Positions 2,637-44,649 of a stretch of 64,000 nucleotides of DNA are shown piece after piece (position 1 is the first letter of the stretch; every line of letters begins with the position of its first letter). The notes under the pieces are model-generated. The model did no database searches. It was not told where the DNA came from and worked only from the letters and a program-made list of their open reading frames with translations. Location of the stretch: the NCBI GenBank assembly GCA_020697715.1, contig JAEHCO010000001.1:32001-96000 (forward strand), given 5' to 3'. The position numbers and the translations under genes were made by a program. The DNA comes from Methanobacteriota archaeon (lineage in GTDB: Archaea > Thermoplasmatota > Thermoplasmata > SG8-5 > JAGLSY01).

Positions 2637-5600
2637 TTAAGAAATGTCTGGCTCCCCTTGCCCTTCAGCCTCAACCTCAATTTCAGCATCTGGCTCTGGA
2701 GATCCTTCCACACCCTCCGGCTTTCCACCACTTCCACCTCTGGTGAATCCAATAACAGCCAGCACACCCATAACGACAGCCGCGATGACCGCGCCCCAGG
2801 CCCATGCCGGGGTCTCGATGACCGTGTCCTGTGTGGATGGATCGGCGGTGCCATTATTCCAAACAGTTGTATTATGATATTCTGGAATTGTGTTATTGGC
2901 CCATTCGGTCGTGTTGTGGTATTCTGGAATTGTCTCATTGTTCCATATTGTTTGATTGTGATACTCTGGAACTGTCTCATTGTTCCAGATGGTCTGATTG
3001 TTGTACTCTGGAACTGTCTCATTGTTCCAGATGGTCTGATTGTTGTACTCTGTGACAATGAGGAAATCAGAATCCATGAAATCCGCTATGCCGTCATTGT
3101 CATCGTCTGGTGGAAGATCAGTGTCATCCAATGGGTCAAATCCACCTGCAATTTCGACTGCATCGTCCCAGTTATCATTGTCATCATCATCATCCACCGA
3201 ATCGTCAATTCCATCGCCATCATTATCTGATACCATTGTCGGATCAAGTGGGAAGTCATCAGAGGTATCTGGAGTGCCGTCATTGTCATCGTCCAGGTCT
3301 GTGGTGTCCGGTTGACCGTCATTGTCTGTATCCAGATCCACAGTAAGGGTGAATATCCGGGTGTCATTGGCACCGTTCCCATCATCAACTGTGACCTCGA
3401 CATTGTAGATACCTGCCTGCGCATTGTTGGGTGTTCCGGACAATATTCCGTCATTGTCTATTGAAAGCCAGCCTGTGACATTACCGGACAGGTTCCAGGT
3501 CGTGGATGGGTCATCTGTGGAATCATAATCGACCGAGTACAATGCTCCAGTGTTGGTGCTCGGAACATCTGGGGTTGTTATACTGGGGCCCATGTTCTCC
3601 ACATCGAAGGTGTAATTATAGAAGCCTTGGTGGCCCACAGGATCCGTGGCCGTGATATTTGCATAGTATGTGCCTACATCCACGTTCAAAGGAGTTCCAG
3701 ATATTACTCCAAATGAGGATATGGACAGCCAGCCTGTGGCATCGGTTTCCAAGCCCCATTGCATCATGCCAGATCCAGGAAGAGGTTGAAGGGCTGAATC
3801 AAAAACGATCATGTAATTTGAATCTTCAATAGCCGTGTCCATCATGGTCACTTGCCCTGTCGAGATAATTGTGGAGAACGGAGTCAGGTATGGGTATGAA
3901 GTGGTCTCCATAATGCCCCAGACATTTGTGAAGTTCCATGGCGGGTTGAATGTCGCTTGCTGCTTCATCTCAGCAGTGGTCTTACCAGTTGCACCAGTAA
4001 GTCCGCCAGCGCCGATTCCTATTCCTGTTACAGAAGTGTCGGTATCCCAAAAACAATCTATGATAGCGCCAGAATTGTTATATCCGGCAAAGCCACCCGA
4101 ATTGAGATTACCGATTGCCCTACCTGTGCTGTAACAATTCTTTATCGTGCCAATGCCCCATACATATCCTGTGAATCCACCAACCCGGTCATTACCAATA
4201 GCATTTCCCATGCTGTAGCAGTTCGCGATGATACCGTGGTTCTGTCCTGAAAAACCACCAACATATTCAATTGTTCCAATAGAGCTCCCAGTACTGTAGC
4301 AGGCAGTGATCGATCCAACTTCATTGATACCCACAAAACCACCAACATAACTATCTGTTCCAGTTGCACCCCCTGTGCTGTAGCTTGCCGTTATCGGTCC
4401 TTCGTTCCATCCTACAAAACCACCAATATACATATGTCCACTGGCACTACCTGTGCTGTAGCAATTTGTGATCGTGCCGACATTGGTCATAAACCCCGCG
4501 AAGCCCCCAACATAATCAAAAATTCCTGTGGCACTGCCAGTGCTGTAGCAATTTGTGACCTGGCTATTATCAATATATCCAACGAAACCACCAACATACA
4601 TATCTCCATTTACAATACCGGTGCTGTATGAGTTTATGATCGTGCCGCCAATATTAAATCCAACGAAGCCGCCGACATAATGATCGATCGATGTGGCATC
4701 TCCTGTGCTGTAGCAGTTAGAGGCGGTATTGCCATTAAGACCGATGAAGCCGCCGACATTGTTAGCACCGCTGGCATCTCCTGTGCTGTAGCAGTTAGAG
4801 ACGGGATTGCCATTAAGACCGATGAAGCCACCGACATGATCATCACCACTGGCATTGCCAGTACTGTAGCAGTTAGAGACGAGATTGTTATTAAGACCGA
4901 TGAAGCCACCATAATAATCTCCCGATGCAAAAGAGATGGCATTGCCGGTGCTGTAGCAGTTTGTTATAGTGCCACTGTTACTTCCTGTGAATCCTCCTGC
5001 ATAATCATCGACCCCATTGGCATCTCCCGTACTATAGCAATTTATTATGTCTGCCTGATTTTGGCCTACAAAGCCTCCTGTATACTCAACTGCGGTTGAC
5101 GTGCCAGTACTGTAGCAATTGGAGATATTACCTACAAAATTAAGTCCTACAAATCCACCAGCGGTCCATGAGATACCATTTACAGAACTGGTACTGTAGC
5201 AGTAAGTGATAGTGCCACCATTATTTGTTCCAACAAGCCCGCCAACATCAAAGATTCCAGTTACGTATCCTGTGCTGTAACAGTCAGTGATCGTGCCCAT
5301 ATTTCTTGCAACCAAGCCTCCAACAGTATCTTGGCCATCTATATCTGAATTGTTCAGGCCAATGCCAGTTAAGCTGGCTGTTTCGCTGATAATGCCAAAG
5401 AGGCCAACTTGATCTGTGGTGGAACGGTTTATTATCAAATTAATTATTTCAAAGCCCTGGCCATCCAGAGAGCCATTGAACTTCGATGTGGTATTACCAA
5501 TTGGTGTAAACCCTGCGCCAGAATCCCAGATATTGGTAATTGTGGCATCGATATCATTGCCCAATACGTAACTTGCATTCATGTCCAAGCGTATGTAATA

Positions 5601-5792
5601 CAAATCAAGAACATCCTCCACAATGTAAGGGTTGCCAATACTACCATCTCCACCACCGAAAGCTCCTCCGGCAAGTGGGACAGGGCCGGGAACAATTTCC
5701 TCACCCTCTACATTCGCGGTCATATCCAGCATCACAAAAAGTGAGCTGAGAACTAGCATAGAACTGATAATTAATGTGGCTGTTTTCTTCAT
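2637..5792 (-). CDS. GLUG-repeat surface glycoprotein with putative Ig-like domains, TSP3-like Ca-binding repeats and C-terminal TM anchor
   Basis: Signal peptide from MKKTATL (ATG 5792); many VGGFVG.N...NCYSTG repeats; two WLSI..G..SGTP Ig-like segments; DxDxDG repeats; TM segment WAWGAVIAAVVMGVLAVIGF. Confidence 0.85.
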   Translation of the reverse strand: MKKTATLIISSMLVLSSLFVMLDMTANVEGEEIVPGPVPLAGGAFGGGDGSIGNPYIVEDVLDLYYIRLDMNASYVLGNDIDATITNIWDSGAGFTPIGNTTSKFNGSLDGQGFEIINLIINRSTTDQVGLFGIISETASLTGIGLNNSDIDGQDTVGGLVARNMGTITDCYSTGYVTGIFDVGGLVGTNNGGTITYCYSTSSVNGISWTAGGFVGLNFVGNISNCYSTGTSTAVEYTGGFVGQNQADIINCYSTGDANGVDDYAGGFTGSNSGTITNCYSTGNAISFASGDYYGGFIGLNNNLVSNCYSTGNASGDDHVGGFIGLNGNPVSNCYSTGDASGANNVGGFIGLNGNTASNCYSTGDATSIDHYVGGFVGFNIGGTIINSYSTGIVNGDMYVGGFVGYIDNSQVTNCYSTGSATGIFDYVGGFAGFMTNVGTITNCYSTGSASGHMYIGGFVGWNEGPITASYSTGGATGTDSYVGGFVGINEVGSITACYSTGSSIGTIEYVGGFSGQNHGIIANCYSMGNAIGNDRVGGFTGYVWGIGTIKNCYSTGRAIGNLNSGGFAGYNNSGAIIDCFWDTDTSVTGIGIGAGGLTGATGKTTAEMKQQATFNPPWNFTNVWGIMETTSYPYLTPFSTIISTGQVTMMDTAIEDSNYMIVFDSALQPLPGSGMMQWGLETDATGWLSISSFGVISGTPLNVDVGTYYANITATDPVGHQGFYNYTFDVENMGPSITTPDVPSTNTGALYSVDYDSTDDPSTTWNLSGNVTGWLSIDNDGILSGTPNNAQAGIYNVEVTVDDGNGANDTRIFTLTVDLDTDNDGQPDTTDLDDDNDGTPDTSDDFPLDPTMVSDNDGDGIDDSVDDDDDNDNWDDAVEIAGGFDPLDDTDLPPDDDNDGIADFMDSDFLIVTEYNNQTIWNNETVPEYNNQTIWNNETVPEYHNQTIWNNETIPEYHNTTEWANNTIPEYHNTTVWNNGTADPSTQDTVIETPAWAWGAVIAAVVMGVLAVIGFTRGGSGGKPEGVEGSPEPDAEIEVEAEGQGEPDIS
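2851..3051 (-). repeat. 42-bp in-frame tandem repeat encoding EYNNQTIWNNETVP-like units
   Basis: Near-identical 42-nt units in the DNA; three full and two truncated protein units. Confidence 0.85.
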
Positions 5793-5863
5793 GATATCAT
5801 TTCCCCTATCAATGTGAGGGAAATGCACCATATGGCATAATTACTTTTAGATTGTTAATTGAA

Positions 5864-6901
5864 TTACAACAGCTTGCCCCACCTGGAAGGTTCCCTGCCC
5901 TTCCAGTTGCCCTTGTTGTAAGCATACCCGGCTATCAGCGGCAATGCGATGGTGGCCTCTGCCCAAACCATCTGCTCATGGTTGGTCTCTACTTTTCCCC
6001 ATGAACTGGCTTCCTTCAGGGTGCTGCCGGATAATGCGCCATCGCGCTCGTCAGCCACTGTGATCTGTATCGCGTATTTGTGCATGCGGACATCCTCCAG
6101 GAGCTTGCCAGATGGGTCAACTTCGACACCCAGGACAGTGTCCTGTACGAAGTTCTTGGGCACTCCGCCGCCTATCATGAAGATGCCGGATTGCTTGCTG
6201 GCTGTTACCAAGGCTACCAGTTCCCTGAAATCAGCGACCGAATCAATGCTCAGATGCAGATCCGGGTTCTGACGCTGGTGATCCAATAGACCGAATCCCG
6301 CACTGCAATCCGAGAAAGCTGGGCAGAAGATCGGAACATCCATCTTGTAGGCCGCGTGAATGACCGAGTCATCCACCTTCGGTCCCTGTTCATCCAGATA
6401 CTTGCCCATCTCCTTGATGAACTCGCGAGATGAATAGGGGCGCTTTTCGAGTTTGTCCGCTATCACTTTCACTGTCTGGTCGCACACGCGCAATTCTTCT
6501 TCATCTATGAACGTATCATATATTCTATCAATATGTAATTCGCGGAGATCATTGTCATCCACAAATGGTGTGCCGATGTAGTGCTTGAATCCAATGGCCT
6601 CGAAGAAATCCATGTCCACAATTACCGCGCCAGTCGAGACAATTGCATCGATCATATTGTTCATTATCATGTCATGAACAATTTTCTTCAAACCTGCTGA
6701 GAAGAGGGAGCCGGACATACAAAGGATCACCTTGCAATCATGGTCAGCCAGCATCATGTCGTATATCTTGGCCGCGCGTGATAGATTGCGAGCCTGGAAA
6801 GCCATGCTGGACATCGACTCCACGATATCTACAACGTCATGCTCTTTCATGTCATAATGCTCTATCAGGTCTTTGAGAAGGTCTTCTTTTTTCAGGTTCA
6901 T
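5864..6901 (-). CDS. dys: deoxyhypusine synthase
   Basis: DRIYDT, GGGVPKNF and GALSGSTLKEASSWGK motifs, with the active-site Lys retained. Confidence 0.9.
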   Translation of the reverse strand: MNLKKEDLLKDLIEHYDMKEHDVVDIVESMSSMAFQARNLSRAAKIYDMMLADHDCKVILCMSGSLFSAGLKKIVHDMIMNNMIDAIVSTGAVIVDMDFFEAIGFKHYIGTPFVDDNDLRELHIDRIYDTFIDEEELRVCDQTVKVIADKLEKRPYSSREFIKEMGKYLDEQGPKVDDSVIHAAYKMDVPIFCPAFSDCSAGFGLLDHQRQNPDLHLSIDSVADFRELVALVTASKQSGIFMIGGGVPKNFVQDTVLGVEVDPSGKLLEDVRMHKYAIQITVADERDGALSGSTLKEASSWGKVETNHEQMVWAEATIALPLIAGYAYNKGNWKGREPSRWGKLL

Positions 6902-39654: not shown

Positions 39655-41346
39655 ATGGATCCTAATATCGTCCTTGGACTTGCAAAGAGACGGGGCTTCT
39701 TCTTCCCATCCTTCGAGATATACGGAGGGATGGCTGGCATGTATGATTATGGACCTTTGGGTTCGGCCATGAAGAACAATATCGAATCTCTGTGGAGGAA
39801 GAACTATGTCCTTCACGAAGGGCTGTCGGAGATCTTTTCTCCGATAATATCCCCGGAGGAAGTCTTTCGAGCATCTGGCCATCTGGCAGAGTTCAGTGAT
39901 TTTTCTGTCCAATGTCAGAAATGCAAGCAGGCTTTCAGAGCCGACCACTTACTTGAAGAAGTGGTCGATAACCCGGATTCCATGAGCCAGAAAGAACTGG
40001 GCGAAGCAATGGTGAGCAATGATATCAAATGCCCATCCTGCAAAGGCGAACTATCCGAGCCAGTCGCTGTGAACCTCATGTTCAAGACAACGGTCGGCCC
40101 TCTTGGCGGCCGTGATGGATATATGAGGCCGGAGACCGCTCAGGCGATGTTCTTCAATTTCCATCTCCTTCACAGGTTTTACAGAGAAAAACTACCATTT
40201 GGCATAGTGCAGCTTGGCAAGGGTTTCAGGAATGAGATATCTCCGCGCCAGGGCATCACCCGTCTAAGGGAATTCAATATGATGGAGGCAGAAGTGTTCT
40301 TCGACCCTGAGAACAAGGTGTGGCCGGGCTTTGCCGAAGTGGCGGACCTCAAGCTCAGACTGCTCCCTGATGGTCTGGAAGAGCAGGAACTTTCTCTCAA
40401 AGATGCGGTTTCCAAGGGCATAATCGCGAATGAGCCACTGGCTTATTTCATGCATGTTACCAAGAAAATATTACTGGCTGCTGGACTTGATGATAAGAGG
40501 CTGAGATTCAGACAGCATCTGAAGACCGAGATGGCGCATTATGCTGAGGATTGCTGGGATTGCGAGGCTCTGACTGGCTACGGATGGCTGGAACTTGTTG
40601 GTGTGGCCGATCGTGGATGCTATGACCTTCAAAGTCATATCGACCATTCGGATGCGGAGCTTACCGCTTTTATTAGATTTCCAGAGCCCATCGAGATGGA
40701 GGCCACGGTCATAGTACCAAACCTGAGCGCCCTTGGCCCATTGTTCAAAGGCAAGGCAGGAGCAATTGCTACAAGGCTTGGTGAGATGCCTTGTGATGGC
40801 CTTGATGCCACCATGCCGATCGTTCTGGACATGGATGGAGAAGAGGTCACCGTCCCCGCCAATTGCTTCACCATATCGCAAGAGATCAAGAAGGTGAGCG
40901 GCAAGAGGATCGTACCTCATGTGATCGAGCCATCATATGGATTAGATAGGATATTCTACACCGTGATGGATCACAATTACAAGGAAGATGGTGAGTATGT
41001 GACACTCGGCCTGCCGATCGCGATAGCCCCCATCAAATTTGGTGTATTCCCACTCATGACGAAGGACGGACTGGATGACATCGCTTCCGAGGTCGATAAG
41101 AAACTCAGACAGAAAGGATTATTAACATACTACGACGGCAGCGGGACCATCGGCAGAAGGTATGCCAGAATGGACGAGGCCGGTACACCCTTCTGCATAA
41201 CCGTGGATTATGAAAGCAAGGAAGATGATTGCGTGACGATTCGTGACAGGGATACCAAAGATCAGAAAAGGGTGAAGATGGATGATCTGGATAAGGTAGC
41301 TATATCCCTTGCGGATTCCTCACTCACCTTCGAAGCTATTGGTTGA
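39655..41346 (+). CDS. glyS: glycine--tRNA ligase (archaeal/eukaryotic type)
   Basis: YDYGPLG, RPETAQ, FRNEISPRQG, EMAHYA, VIEPSYG, IGRRYAR. Confidence 0.97.
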   Translation: MDPNIVLGLAKRRGFFFPSFEIYGGMAGMYDYGPLGSAMKNNIESLWRKNYVLHEGLSEIFSPIISPEEVFRASGHLAEFSDFSVQCQKCKQAFRADHLLEEVVDNPDSMSQKELGEAMVSNDIKCPSCKGELSEPVAVNLMFKTTVGPLGGRDGYMRPETAQAMFFNFHLLHRFYREKLPFGIVQLGKGFRNEISPRQGITRLREFNMMEAEVFFDPENKVWPGFAEVADLKLRLLPDGLEEQELSLKDAVSKGIIANEPLAYFMHVTKKILLAAGLDDKRLRFRQHLKTEMAHYAEDCWDCEALTGYGWLELVGVADRGCYDLQSHIDHSDAELTAFIRFPEPIEMEATVIVPNLSALGPLFKGKAGAIATRLGEMPCDGLDATMPIVLDMDGEEVTVPANCFTISQEIKKVSGKRIVPHVIEPSYGLDRIFYTVMDHNYKEDGEYVTLGLPIAIAPIKFGVFPLMTKDGLDDIASEVDKKLRQKGLLTYYDGSGTIGRRYARMDEAGTPFCITVDYESKEDDCVTIRDRDTKDQKRVKMDDLDKVAISLADSSLTFEAIG

Positions 41347-41350
41347 TACC

Positions 41351-42181
41351 TTGTCAGATGATCCAGCCCTTCAGAAGAATATTGATGATACTCATCGTCT
41401 TATTCTGAGCCATCTTGAAAAAGAGCTGGGCGATGATCGTCGCTATGGCCATCATGATCCGGATCAACAAAAGAAGACCGCGGTTCTTTTCTCCGGCGGT
41501 CTGGACAGTGCTTTACTGGCTCATATCGTCTCACAGGAATTCTTCAAGCCGAAATTATATTCCATTGGATTCAAAAAATCCAATGACCTCAACTGGTCGA
41601 AGGAAGCTGCAGACCTGATGGGGCTGTATATTGAGCAAGTTGTGATCGATGTGGAAGATATTGAAATGGCGATCAAGCACATTGTCCATGATATCGGAAT
41701 GGACAATCCAAAATGGATGGCTGTCTTCATTCCTTTTTATCTCATACTTAGCCAGGTGGAGGAAAGCTCCCTTATATTGGGCCAGGGAGCTGACGAGGTC
41801 TTTGGAGGATACAGAAAGTACAGGGAAGTTGATGAGAAGGAAGCACAGGCCATGATGGATAGGGACATCATGGAAATAATCGAGAGCGAGGCTTCCTTTT
41901 ATCACAAGATGGGAGGACATTTCGGCAAGAGATTGATACTCCCTTACCTTGACCCGGCGATCATCGAATACGGCAAGACCATACCTTTCGCCCATAAGAT
42001 AAATGAGGATCAGAACAAGAGAGTGTTGAGACTCCTGGCAGAAGATATTGGCCTTCCATCCCCGATAGCACAGAGACCGAAGAAGGCCATGCAATATGGA
42101 ACAGGAGTGTCCAAAGAATTGAAAAAGATCCTCAAAAGGTCAGGTACTGGATTGGAAGAATATATTGCTGAGTTGAAATGA
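41351..42181 (+). CDS. asparagine synthase C-terminal-domain protein
   Basis: FSGGLDS PP-loop, GQGADEVFGGY, RPKKAMQYG; no glutaminase domain. Confidence 0.85.
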   Translation: MSDDPALQKNIDDTHRLILSHLEKELGDDRRYGHHDPDQQKKTAVLFSGGLDSALLAHIVSQEFFKPKLYSIGFKKSNDLNWSKEAADLMGLYIEQVVIDVEDIEMAIKHIVHDIGMDNPKWMAVFIPFYLILSQVEESSLILGQGADEVFGGYRKYREVDEKEAQAMMDRDIMEIIESEASFYHKMGGHFGKRLILPYLDPAIIEYGKTIPFAHKINEDQNKRVLRLLAEDIGLPSPIAQRPKKAMQYGTGVSKELKKILKRSGTGLEEYIAELK

Positions 42182-42257
42182 CTTATTAATTGATGAAAAA
42201 AATTAGTAATCTATATCTATGGTAAGTGCCATGTACTTTCATTATTGAGGAAATTGT

Positions 42258-43079
42258 ATGGATGTTCGTCGTGTGAAGAGAAAAGTACTCATGCTCGGAG
42301 ATGGGGCTGTCGGTAAGACCAGTCTTATTCACAAATATGTGATGGATAAGTTCGATGACAAGTACATCACCACCATCGGGACTAAGATCACGAAGAAGAT
42401 CCTCAGCCTCAAACAGGACAGTGAAAAGGTCGAGCTCACACTCATGATATGGGATATACTGGGGCAGAAAGGATACACATCGATCCAATCCACCAGTTAC
42501 AAGGGGGGTGAAGGCGCACTTATGGTATGCGATCTCACAAGGAAAGAGACCCTTGCCAGCCTGGAGGAATATTGGATACCCGAGGTAAGAAAGGTACGCG
42601 ACAATATACCTTTCATCTTCGTCGGGAACAAAGCTGATCTGGTTGACAAGAGAGAGATCACGAATGATGACCTTCAAGAACTGGCAGACAAATATGATAC
42701 GAAATATTTCCTCAGCAGTGCGAAGACTGGAGAGAATGTGGAGGATATGTTCGAAGCCCTTGGTATGTCCATCATTTCAGATCAGGCCATAGAAACTTCA
42801 GAAGCTCAAACAGTGGCAAAAAAGGAGATCAAGGATCTCGTGGATGTCACTGACATCATAATCAATGAATTCTGCGATGGATTCGGAGACAGAGAAACCG
42901 CGATGGCGATGGTGAGACAGCAATTCTCAAGAGCGGGATTGGATGTAAAAGGCCCAGTCAAGGAAAATCTGATCCAGGCAGTGGAAAATCTGGCCCAAGT
43001 GGAAATGGGCTTCAAGGACGAATTCAAGGTCAAGAGTAATTTGTCAAAGAGAAAGAGAATGATCGAACAATATGGGTGA
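42258..43079 (+). CDS. Rab-like small GTPase with a C-terminal helical extension
   Basis: G1 GDGAVGKTS, G2 YITTIG, G3 WDILGQ, G4 NKAD, G5 SAKTG. Confidence 0.92.
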   Translation: MDVRRVKRKVLMLGDGAVGKTSLIHKYVMDKFDDKYITTIGTKITKKILSLKQDSEKVELTLMIWDILGQKGYTSIQSTSYKGGEGALMVCDLTRKETLASLEEYWIPEVRKVRDNIPFIFVGNKADLVDKREITNDDLQELADKYDTKYFLSSAKTGENVEDMFEALGMSIISDQAIETSEAQTVAKKEIKDLVDVTDIIINEFCDGFGDRETAMAMVRQQFSRAGLDVKGPVKENLIQAVENLAQVEMGFKDEFKVKSNLSKRKRMIEQYG

Positions 43080-43623
43080 TCAGATGGGTAAGAAATTGAT
43101 GAAGAAGATATGCTTGCTAGGAGATGGAGCTGTCGGTAAGACCAGCCTTATCAAGAAATTCGTGGATGACTCATTCGATGATAAATATATCAAGACCTTC
43201 GGCACAAAGGTGTCCAAGAAGCAGGTGGACATCAATAGGCCAGAGGATGAATTCCATCTCACATTCCTTATCTGGGATATTCTTGGTCAGAGAGTGCATA
43301 ATAATCTTCATTCCACATATTATAAAGGCGCTGCAGGAGCCTTCATAGTATGTGATGTCACAAGAAAGGAAACAATGGATAAGCTTGAGGACTGGATCAA
43401 TGTGTTCCGAGGTGTCAATGATGCCGCTCCCATTGTATTATTGGGGAATAAATCCGATCTTCTGGATGACAGAGGGCCAGCGGATCAACAGATCAAAGCA
43501 GTGGCTGACAAATTCAATTTATCATATCATCTGACCAGTGCCAAAACAGGCGATGATGTTGAGGAATCTTTCCTCGAGCTTGGAAATGAGGTCATAACTT
43601 CCTTCCTGAAAGGAGGTGTTTGA
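43072..43623 (+). CDS. Rab-like small GTPase
   Basis: G1 GDGAVGKTS, G2 YIKTFG, G3 WDILGQ, YYKGAAGA, G4 NKSD, G5 SAKTG. Confidence 0.92.
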   Translation: MGDQMGKKLMKKICLLGDGAVGKTSLIKKFVDDSFDDKYIKTFGTKVSKKQVDINRPEDEFHLTFLIWDILGQRVHNNLHSTYYKGAAGAFIVCDVTRKETMDKLEDWINVFRGVNDAAPIVLLGNKSDLLDDRGPADQQIKAVADKFNLSYHLTSAKTGDDVEESFLELGNEVITSFLKGGV

Positions 43624-43680
43624 AAATGCAAATCATATTTGCATTTTTAAAAGCCCGAAGTGTAACGGAGGGGTTCTGAT

Positions 43681-44649
43681 ATGAGTGATGATGGCACCGT
43701 CAGCTTCTTTGTAATTCCTGGAGATGCATTGAAAAGCCTGAGCGATGAACTCCAGATCGTTCTTGGCGAGGATCCTTCCAAAGAAACAATGGAAAGATAT
43801 GGATTCAGATGCGGCGAGGGACTTGTTCGCAGTATTGGATTCGAATGTGAAGACCTTGACGAATTCCAGGAAATGATGCCTGGAATATTGATCGAAACAG
43901 GCCTGGGAAGAACAAGGGCTCTCAAATTGATCGATGATCAGATCCTTATCGAATTCGAGGATTCTGTGGAAGCGAATGCAATGGGCAAAGCGGAAGTTCC
44001 AAGCTGTAATTTCACCAGAGGTTATCTTTCAGGAGTGGTCACCACCCTTTTCAACAGAAGATATGACTGCGTGGAAGAAACATGCATATGCAAGGGTGAC
44101 GAGATATGCATGCACAGGCTTACATTGAGCAGCCAGGATATCAAGCCAGAGGCTGAAAGCGTGGAGCAGTCAGAACAGGCATTCGATCTGGAGACCGCCA
44201 CAAGCTACCTGGTGAAAGAGGAGTCTCCCGATGTCTCATACAATATATTCAAGGATTATGTCACCCATGGGCATCAGGGATTGTGCATAACCAGAGATTT
44301 CCCAGCAAAGGTGAGGAAGAAGTTCGACCTCCAAAAGACACCGATAATCTGGCTTTCTACATCGGACACGGAGAACACTGTGGCCCCTCAGAATCTATCT
44401 GCACTTTTCTACCAGATAGAGAATTTCCTGAAGAAGAGCGAGAACGGTATCATAATACTCTCTGGAATGGAATACCTGATATCCCACAATACCTACCAAT
44501 CCGTTTTAAAATTCGTTCAGCTTCTCAATGAGCAGATCGCCATAAGGGATTCGATACTGATCGTACCACTTAGCCCTCTGACACTCGATGAGAAGGACCT
44601 GAAGATGATCGAGCGGGAACTGGAAACATGGCAGGATTGTTGCGATTGA
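43681..44649 (+). CDS. V4R-domain / DUF835-like fusion protein
   Basis: CNFTRGYLSG...EETCICKGDEIC (V4R); GLCITR, IIWLS, GMEYLISHN (DUF835-like). Confidence 0.8.
   Translation: MSDDGTVSFFVIPGDALKSLSDELQIVLGEDPSKETMERYGFRCGEGLVRSIGFECEDLDEFQEMMPGILIETGLGRTRALKLIDDQILIEFEDSVEANAMGKAEVPSCNFTRGYLSGVVTTLFNRRYDCVEETCICKGDEICMHRLTLSSQDIKPEAESVEQSEQAFDLETATSYLVKEESPDVSYNIFKDYVTHGHQGLCITRDFPAKVRKKFDLQKTPIIWLSTSDTENTVAPQNLSALFYQIENFLKKSENGIIILSGMEYLISHNTYQSVLKFVQLLNEQIAIRDSILIVPLSPLTLDEKDLKMIERELETWQDCCD

Follow-up and report, generated by a model that had tools for sequence, protein, structure and literature searches.

The subject of this study is a three-gene locus of a 64,000-nucleotide stretch of the genome of an uncultured archaeon, assigned to Thermoplasmata by the names of its protein homologues (contig JAEHCO010000001.1; the whole stretch is called the window below), which encodes two consecutive Rab-like small GTPases, designated G1 and G2, followed by a protein composed of a V4R and a DUF835 domain. 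All three genes lie on the + strand and are co-directional. The locus had been singled out in a first-pass annotation made from the sequence alone, the claims of which are taken up below together with the results that bear on them. Its genes and domains are the following:

42258..43079, + strand: G1, Rab-like small GTPase with a C-terminal extension (open reading frame of 273 amino acids; Ras match)
42258..42785, + strand: GTPase domain of G1, residues 1-176, with the G1-G5 motifs and the catalytic Gln70 (Pfam, alignment, model)
42813..43076, + strand: C-terminal four-helix domain of G1 ("Cext"), residues ~186-273 (alignment, AlphaFold model)
43072..43623, + strand: G2, single-domain Rab-like small GTPase of 183 amino acids (Ras match; alternative start 43084)
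43681..44649, + strand: V4R-DUF835 protein of 322 amino acids, a sensor domain plus an inactivated KaiC-like domain (Pfam, alignment)
43690..44130, + strand: MopR/PoxR-type V4R sensor domain, N-terminal, residues ~4-150 (conserved Cys109, Glu132, Cys135 and Cys143)
44185..44631, + strand: DUF835 (inactivated KaiC-like) domain, residues ~169-317 (PF05763; without Walker A)

Linkage of the GTPase and V4R-DUF835 genes

The neighbourhood of the V4R-DUF835 gene was followed in two samples, i.e. 41 related genomes, this one included, whose loci were checked with our own hidden Markov models (HMMs) and Pfam, and a public set of 80 loci, one genome per species, fetched with the V4R-DUF835 family profile from Thermoplasmata, Methanomassiliicoccales and Methanomassiliicoccus; in the scoring of the loci, "v4r" stands for our own HMM of the N-terminal domain of the family. 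A GTPase gene abuts the V4R-DUF835 gene in 72 of the 80 loci. It lies directly upstream on the same strand in 69, separated by -3 to +13 nucleotides in 46 of these; in two loci (L095, L117) it is found directly downstream and in one (L051) it is truncated by the contig end, three further loci (L041, L086, L099) being cut at uninformative contig ends. The flanks vary widely, the 72 upstream neighbours belonging to 27 families and the 71 downstream ones to 29. The most frequent of these are PAC2 and arginine decarboxylase in Methanomassiliicoccales and an Asn-synthase-like gene in the order of the host. The linkage, on the conservation of which the first-pass annotation had made its reading depend, is thus preserved amid varied flanks, and one fusion protein (see below) adds to it.

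Concerning the related genomes, the order G1-G2-V4R-DUF835 is colinear in 17 of the 41, and contig ends cut the locus in two more (L019; L020 and L021). One relative (G027) has G2 and V4R-DUF835 without G1 (L016), and in another (G037) V4R-DUF835 stands by itself (L014) and a V4R-only gene preceded by a GTPase gene is found elsewhere (L015); a GTPase likewise stands ahead of a V4R-only gene, DUF835 having been lost, in the second pair of L057. Other families keep the trio or the pair amid different surroundings (L011, L012, L013, L018), such as an RNA polymerase subunit and a Na/H exchanger in L012, urocanase and NUDIX in L013, or AIR-synthase-like and proteasome genes in L018. Four genomes that are 99-100% complete (G026, G030, G033, G039) have no Rab-like GTPase match at E <= 1e-30 and no full-length V4R-DUF835 either. 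Of the 80 public loci, 16 contain G1. G2 and the V4R-DUF835 protein represent the ancestral core of the locus, G1 having been added upstream in this lineage.

As an observation in its own right, nine loci of one Thermoplasmata clade (L057, L059, L062, L064, L068, L072, L073, L078, L079) carry, after V4R-DUF835, an extra V4R-only gene of 158-192 amino acids, located at about 4950-6000 in each locus; the order seen in L057 (GTPase, V4R-DUF835, GTPase, V4R-only) looks like a duplicated pair minus DUF835.

The GTPase domains were also compared in a quick IQ-TREE analysis of 130 sequences from the collected loci, with support from the Shimodaira-Hasegawa-like approximate likelihood ratio test only and with a sampling that is biased, since most loci had been fetched through V4R-DUF835. 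The GTPases preceding V4R are found in two groups, one a set of 63 rows with 60 V4R-linked members (support 84) and the other a clade of 12 rows with 11 linked ones (support 100). The proteins with the four-helix domain group apart from these, in 46 rows (support 82). Based on this grouping, G2 represents an orthologous lineage that was passed on together with its partner, and G1 derives from another lineage, which has expanded.

A fusion of both partners was looked for in the best 150 of 5089 profile matches in 1.84 billion representatives, 47 of the 150, selected by length or by two matched stretches, being scanned with Pfam. One fused GTPase-V4R-DUF835 protein was found among these best 150 (P0476, 527 amino acids), in which Ras occupies residues 6-180 and the V4R-DUF835 profile matches in its entirety at 192-508. 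The fusion protein and the start/stop overlaps argue for a joint action of the GTPase and the V4R-DUF835 protein, which speaks against the genes being merely co-expressed neighbours with separate functions. That view, together with the related one of a conflict or defence system, is considered very improbable. It could draw on the expanded and patchy GTPase paralogues, e.g. a tandem array of at least seven G1-type genes in L022, and, for defence, on a 2026 preprint (bioRxiv 10.64898/2026.10.19.760177), the portion of which covered here describes V4R as a soluble-ligand sensor fused to ParA-type NTPases in predicted immune systems and contains no mention of Rab, KaiC or DUF835. The pair is, however, mostly found in one copy per genome, among housekeeping genes, and is inherited with the species class-wide; moreover, PADLOC gives no system match, its sole match being a weak CARF-like one on G1 (E 4.3e-5).

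G1 and G2 as Rab-like GTPases

Both GTPases are matched by the Pfam family Ras (PF00071, cut-off 21.6 bits), G1 over residues 9-172 (E 6.3e-41, 140.1 bits) and G2 over residues 12-174 (E 1.5e-36, 125.9 bits). They share the P-loop GDGAVGKTS, the WDILGQ stretch (DxxGQ, with the catalytic Gln), NKxD and SAK, and each has the switch I Thr, within YITTIG in G1 and YIKTFG in G2. Two overlapping small GTPases with the G1-G5 motifs and the catalytic Gln, as described in the first-pass annotation, are therefore confirmed by the reading frames, the Ras matches and the motifs. The overlap measures 8 nucleotides if the ATG at 43072 is the start of G2; the stop codon of G1 occupies 43077-43079 and a second ATG of G2, at 43084, lies just 3' of it. 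The motif residues are invariant in the 53 aligned homologues of G1 (G14, K20, T21, T39, D66, G69, Q70, N124, K125, D127, S154, A155), as are the P-loop, DxxGQ, NKxD and SA in 52 homologues of G2. Homologues of G1 number 1497 at E <= 1e-10, and among the best 120 of these the query coverage is 94-100% (at least 97% in 116 of the 120).

The best 60 matches of G2 among PDB sequences all belong to the Rab family or are Rab-like, with Rab22A (E 4.7e-29) and a Thorarchaeota Rab (E 1.9e-28) at the head of the list. The solved folds nearest to the AlphaFold model of G1 (predicted local distance difference test, pLDDT, 86.5) are the Thorarchaeota Rab 7eze, Rab8a, Rab1 and Rab3, with KRAS appearing first at rank 39 and the E-values being close. 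The name "Rab family GTPase" is attached by NCBI to some of the homologues. As to the Rab-like features listed in the first-pass annotation, the switch I pattern YxxT(I/F)G and IWD are present in both proteins, whereas YYKGA holds for G2 but not for G1, which has SYKGG. In a comparison by eye, IWD and YYKGA (G2) agree with the RabF consensus, and the RabF1 stretch TFGTKV and the RabF3 stretch RVHNNL appear to fall outside it. The C-terminal ends (...SFLKGGV in G2 and ...RMIEQYG in G1) have no nearby Cys, the prenylation Cys being absent from both as had been observed. Because their nearest PDB sequences and folds are Rabs, G1 and G2 are, as judged by sequence, Rab-like, yet they lack the prenylation site and match the RabF motifs only in part.

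It should be pointed out that G2 falls, by its length and motifs, within the definition of the Rup GTPases (150-240 amino acids, single domain, eukaryote-like G1-G5 motifs, not MglA), and that G1, with its 273 amino acids, exceeds the length limit of Wuichet and Sogaard-Andersen 2015. None of the Rup-type GTPases had been characterised at the time of that survey (PMC4316618).

The extra domain of G1, estimated at ~95 amino acids in the first-pass annotation, is real and comprises ~88 (residues ~186-273). It is conserved in all 53 aligned homologues, D199, F205, P233, E249 and R265 being invariant, and folds, when modelled alone, into four helices with a pLDDT of 94.5. No known family or fold relative was found for it in any of the searches applied: Pfam at E <= 10 gave chance-level matches only, the profile search of PDB no match under E 0.38, Foldseek against PDB none at E <= 0.001, the wide VIA-align search unrelated generic helical proteins at best (Z 7.4), and the protein atlas no usable match. 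A KaiA-like four-helix bundle was considered as its identity, but no such match appeared in these searches. The domain probably serves to recruit an additional partner. Of 201 genomes sampled evenly across the phylum, 12 contain the domain, nearly always at the end of frames of 270-300 amino acids. The host genome has 10 Ras-family genes, four of which carry the domain by HMM and two more, divergent ones, by alignment.

Two side observations concern the long GTPases. Three more long paralogues of the host genome (300-340 amino acids), at L006:6663-8484 on contig C22 and at L005:5390-6412, have the catalytic Gln replaced (DIIGS, DMLGR), and their C-termini align loosely with the four-helix domain. 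In the array of L022 (G023:C35:8000-19158), GTPases with the four-helix domain are encoded by at least seven genes in tandem and by an eighth, truncated one at the contig end; the array belongs to a relative with a genome of 3.7 Mb and 30 matches to G1.

The V4R-DUF835 protein as a candidate sensor

Both Pfam domains of the gene that follows the GTPases score above the cut-off, as the first-pass annotation had it: V4R (PF02830) at residues 90-148 (E 1.7e-11, 44.4 bits, cut-off 31) and DUF835 (PF05763) at residues 181-314 (E 5e-35, 120.7 bits, cut-off 33.1), the protein having 140 homologues at E <= 1e-10. With a profile of 48 family members, the first ~150 residues were aligned to MopR (5kbe, E 2.9e-4) and PoxR (5fru, E 5.3e-4), the same profile matching also MJ1460. 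The residues C109, E132, C135 and C143, near-invariant in the family alignment, fall on the Cys/Glu/Cys/Cys columns of MopR and PoxR (Cys...Glu-x2-Cys...Cys). In MopR, these residues coordinate zinc. At E <= 0.01, this search of PDB chains gave no match to Bet3/TRAPPC3. Judged by sequence, the nearest relatives of the V4R domain are MopR and PoxR, two phenol sensors with a zinc site, rather than Bet3.

The V4R domain had been read as being of the Bet3/TRAPP type. A common fold and a probable common ancestry of V4R and Bet3 are described in the part of Podar et al. 2008 (PMC2253512) covered here, in which the word GTPase does not occur; the sequence match of the present domain is to MopR and PoxR. 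Taken further, the V4R domain with its Bet3 fold would itself be the guanine nucleotide exchange factor (GEF) of the Rab-like GTPase, homologous to TRAPP acting on Rab1/Ypt1. In addition to the shared fold, it would accord with this that the GTPases are nearest to Rabs and that the GTPase stays with V4R in L015 and L057 despite the loss of DUF835. Furthermore, according to the part of Tran et al. 2024 (PMC10933270) covered, the GTPase genes of the Asgard archaeon MK-D1 are generally located outside operons with genes for Roadblock, longin and TRAPPC3-like proteins, so that the present link would be the clearest genomic one between a GTPase and V4R so far. Against it, the family profile retrieves MopR, PoxR and MJ1460 and no Bet3/TRAPPC3 chain at the threshold given above, the zinc-site pattern is that of a ligand sensor, and no longin-type genes were seen among the neighbours scanned. 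The exchange surface of TRAPP is built mainly from longin subunits. A partnership of this kind outside Asgard archaea and eukaryotes, in which V4R acts directly on the nucleotide state of a Rab-like GTPase, is judged quite improbable; if true, the TRAPP-Rab relation of eukaryotes would be derived from, or a repetition of, a more ancient archaeal pair of sensor and switch that was connected to KaiC-type signalling.

With regard to the second domain, which reads GLCITRDFP and contains no GxxxxGK[ST] Walker A motif, the part of Galperin et al. 2018 (PMC5847659) covered here counts DUF835 among the inactivated KaiC domains (iKaiC), in agreement with the inactive KaiC-like domain proposed in the first-pass annotation. 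Our own hhalign comparison of DUF835 with the KaiC genes of the host genome was weak (E 0.048; tentative register only), and the homology with KaiC is accordingly taken from that literature, as far as covered. DUF835 sits in other proteins C-terminal to seven-transmembrane, PAS, GAF, CBS or REC sensor domains, a placement as expected of a transmitter.

The host genome contains 31 matches to PF06745 and five DUF835 genes. It also contains a second cassette, outside the window, on the - strand of contig C28 (L001:5762-7910), with the order KaiC'-G2'-G1', i.e. a KaiC-family protein of 253 amino acids, a short GTPase of 179 and a long GTPase of 270 with the four-helix domain. In 14 genomes, G1' is colinear with an orthologue of KaiC' (identity of 61% or more), the flanks being TPR/zinc-ribbon in the family of the host, where a 591-amino-acid zinc-ribbon/TPR protein precedes the cassette, and MCM plus NMD3 in another family. 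The trio itself is followed, at a distance of 0.8 kb, by a KaiC gene in one relative (L013). This second cassette supports a tie to KaiC-type signalling, so that the wiring into a KaiC network put forward in the first-pass annotation finds backing in the cassette and in the iKaiC label, but not in the surroundings of the G1-type paralogues, most of which are not adjacent to KaiC genes. As a further V4R/KaiC neighbourhood, one without a GTPase, a V4R match in a 300-amino-acid frame lies ~0.5 kb before a KaiC gene elsewhere in the host genome, again outside the window (C11:460545-461851).

The proximity of short GTPases to KaiC-fold genes could also be read in the opposite direction, with G2-GTP binding DUF835 (and G2'/G1' binding KaiC') and gating the assembly of KaiC-type hexamers, V4R serving as an independent input. 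A short GTPase gene indeed abuts a KaiC-fold gene in both cassettes, G1-G2-[V4R-DUF835] and KaiC'-G2'-G1', the genome is rich in KaiC-family genes, as counted above, and GTPase-less V4R-DUF835 paralogues adjoin KaiC genes (L085, L096, L110). The other four DUF835 genes of the host genome, however, have no GTPase neighbour, and a GTPase occurs with a V4R-only gene (L015, L057) but was not seen with a DUF835-only gene in the loci scanned. We regard this direction of control as unlikely, although it deserves some weight.

The reading considered moderately probable is that the locus forms a three-gene signalling cassette, the core of which is a sensor-switch unit of G2 and the V4R-DUF835 protein. 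The domain identities, the intact catalytic motifs, the conserved adjacency and the one fusion protein are established; the binding, the direction of control, the ligand and the KaiC output are inferred from them. In this scheme, translation of the G2 gene is usually coupled to translation of the gene for a cytoplasmic sensor, consisting of a putative ligand-binding V4R domain with the zinc site of MopR/PoxR and a P-loop-less KaiC-like DUF835 transmitter. A small molecule might be bound by the V4R domain and the protein and G2 might bind each other, which would couple the ligand state to the GDP/GTP state of G2 and make the sensor its dedicated regulator or effector; DUF835 would then relay the signal to KaiC-type ATPases. 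G1 would be a second switch, added upstream, the lineage-restricted four-helix domain of which may recruit a further partner.

Several points weigh against this preferred scheme. Binding of the two proteins, or an effect on nucleotide exchange or hydrolysis, is a prediction from genome context; the predicted complex of G2 with the V4R-DUF835 protein obtained a score of 0.01 and the verdict "no answer", which is evidence neither way. Five loci (L058, L085, L096, L110, L119) have V4R-DUF835 with room upstream and no GTPase, three of them (L085, L096, L110) having KaiC genes nearby instead; three of the five (L085, L096, L119) share the assembly prefix with the pair-bearing loci L056, L051 and L116. 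The counts overstate the independent support because the genomes are related, the 80 loci and the 41 relatives drawing on one species pool. The fusion protein P0476 forms a singleton cluster, comes from a contig of 21.8 kb and is divergent, its GTPase lacking the catalytic Gln and its V4R part having no Cys residues. As regards KaiC, G2' is positioned in the tree with the long-GTPase set and is not an orthologue of G2, and the two cassettes therefore arose separately. Canonical KaiC proteins have GK[ST] in Walker A and a Glu pair. In KaiC' the Walker A motif deviates (GEPGTMKS) and LEQ stands where the Glu pair is expected, so that the protein may not be a normal ATPase. Finally, most G1-type paralogues are not adjacent to KaiC-family genes, which in the host genome accompany two of the seven GTPase loci.

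The organisation of the eukaryotic cell depends centrally on small GTPases that have dedicated regulators, and little is understood of the prokaryotic forerunners of these GTPases. Here the gene of a Rab-like switch nearly always accompanies that of one particular sensor protein, which offers a defined, expressible pair for binding tests and for exchange and GTPase-activating protein (GAP) assays, and makes a pre-eukaryotic link between a GTPase and the V4R/Bet3 fold directly testable. The pair also gives experimental access to the KaiC-like signalling networks of archaea, and G1 adds a new conserved four-helix domain.

Known systems and the surroundings of the locus

Like MglA-MglB, the actinobacterial conservon (CvnA-D) and Rup group 1 (PMC4316618), the present locus joins a Ras-superfamily GTPase to a dedicated partner gene, with links to signalling. 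It differs from them in the partner, which is V4R-DUF835 and not Roadblock/MglB, and in the G3 motif, which is DxxGQ as in eukaryotic Ras and Rab. Membership in MglA was thus ruled out by this motif and by the absence of a Roadblock family among the neighbours scanned. A term search of Wuichet and Sogaard-Andersen 2015 (PMC4316618) gave no occurrence of KaiC or V4R.

The Rab-like sequence and fold and the missing prenylation Cys are shared with the archaeal Rab-like GTPases reported earlier (PMC4915359; Thorarchaeota Rab 7ezb/7eze; PMC10933270), among which Surkont and Pereira-Leal 2016 (PMC4915359) included proteins from a "Thermoplasmatales archaeon" and Aciduliprofundum. In contrast to the present case, the parts of these reports covered here (PMC4915359, PMC10933270) describe no conserved operon partner, and the extra four-helix domain of G1 sets it apart from those GTPases. 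A small GTPase of a euryarchaeon encoded in a conserved operon with two partner genes is known from Haloferax volcanii, i.e. ArvA-ArvB-ArvC (Mills et al. 2024, PMC10927574), where the two partners of ArvA were proposed as GEF and GAP, a function in vesicle formation having been demonstrated for ArvA only. The Arv partners, however, are DUF2073 (ArvB) and DUF2072 (ArvC), whereas the downstream gene here is V4R-DUF835; membership in ArvA was ruled out, as neither DUF2072 nor DUF2073 was found in the loci scanned.

On the side of the sensor, MopR and PoxR (5kbe, 5fru) and the stand-alone archaeal V4R protein MJ1460 (2osd) have the same sensor domain by profile match. Unlike in MopR and PoxR, which continue into AAA+ transcription-activator domains, the V4R sensor continues here into DUF835 and is paired with a GTPase. 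The KaiC-centred archaeal networks with iKaiC/DUF835, as cited in the part of PMC5847659 covered, resemble the present case in the C-terminal position of DUF835 behind REC, PAS and other domains and in the many KaiC genes. The literature searched does not mention a small-GTPase partner of iKaiC/DUF835, although Makarova et al. 2017 (mBio), which lies outside that literature, may do so; likewise, no paper describing the GTPase/V4R-DUF835 pair was found in it, supplements and the same mBio article not being covered.

Concerning the surroundings in the window, the cassette is preceded by CBS, glycyl-tRNA synthetase (GlyRS) and Asn-synthase-like genes and followed by the genes for a GfcR-like phosphoribosyltransferase and class I lysyl-tRNA synthetase. 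The Asn-synthase-like gene (41309-42181; 290 amino acids) covers the C-terminal part only of PF00733, plus DUF7411, and its longest open reading frame overlaps the end of the GlyRS gene by 38 nucleotides. It was ruled out as a member of the cassette, since it precedes the cassette order-wide only and is replaced by other genes elsewhere. Two non-coding features complete the list:

43624..43680, + strand: spacer of 57 nucleotides between the G2 and V4R-DUF835 genes (sequence, comparison with relatives)
42182..42257, + strand: AT-rich intergenic stretch 5' of G1 with a TATA-like run (sequence reading)

The spacer contains a perfect 10-bp inverted repeat, then a T/A-rich run, and GGAGG ahead of the ATG. 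It is an insertion specific to this genome, the stop codon abutting the ATG in a relative of the same genus, and a copy of a repeat element was ruled out by its single occurrence in the genome. The AT-rich stretch, in turn, is a possible candidate for the archaeal promoter of the cassette.

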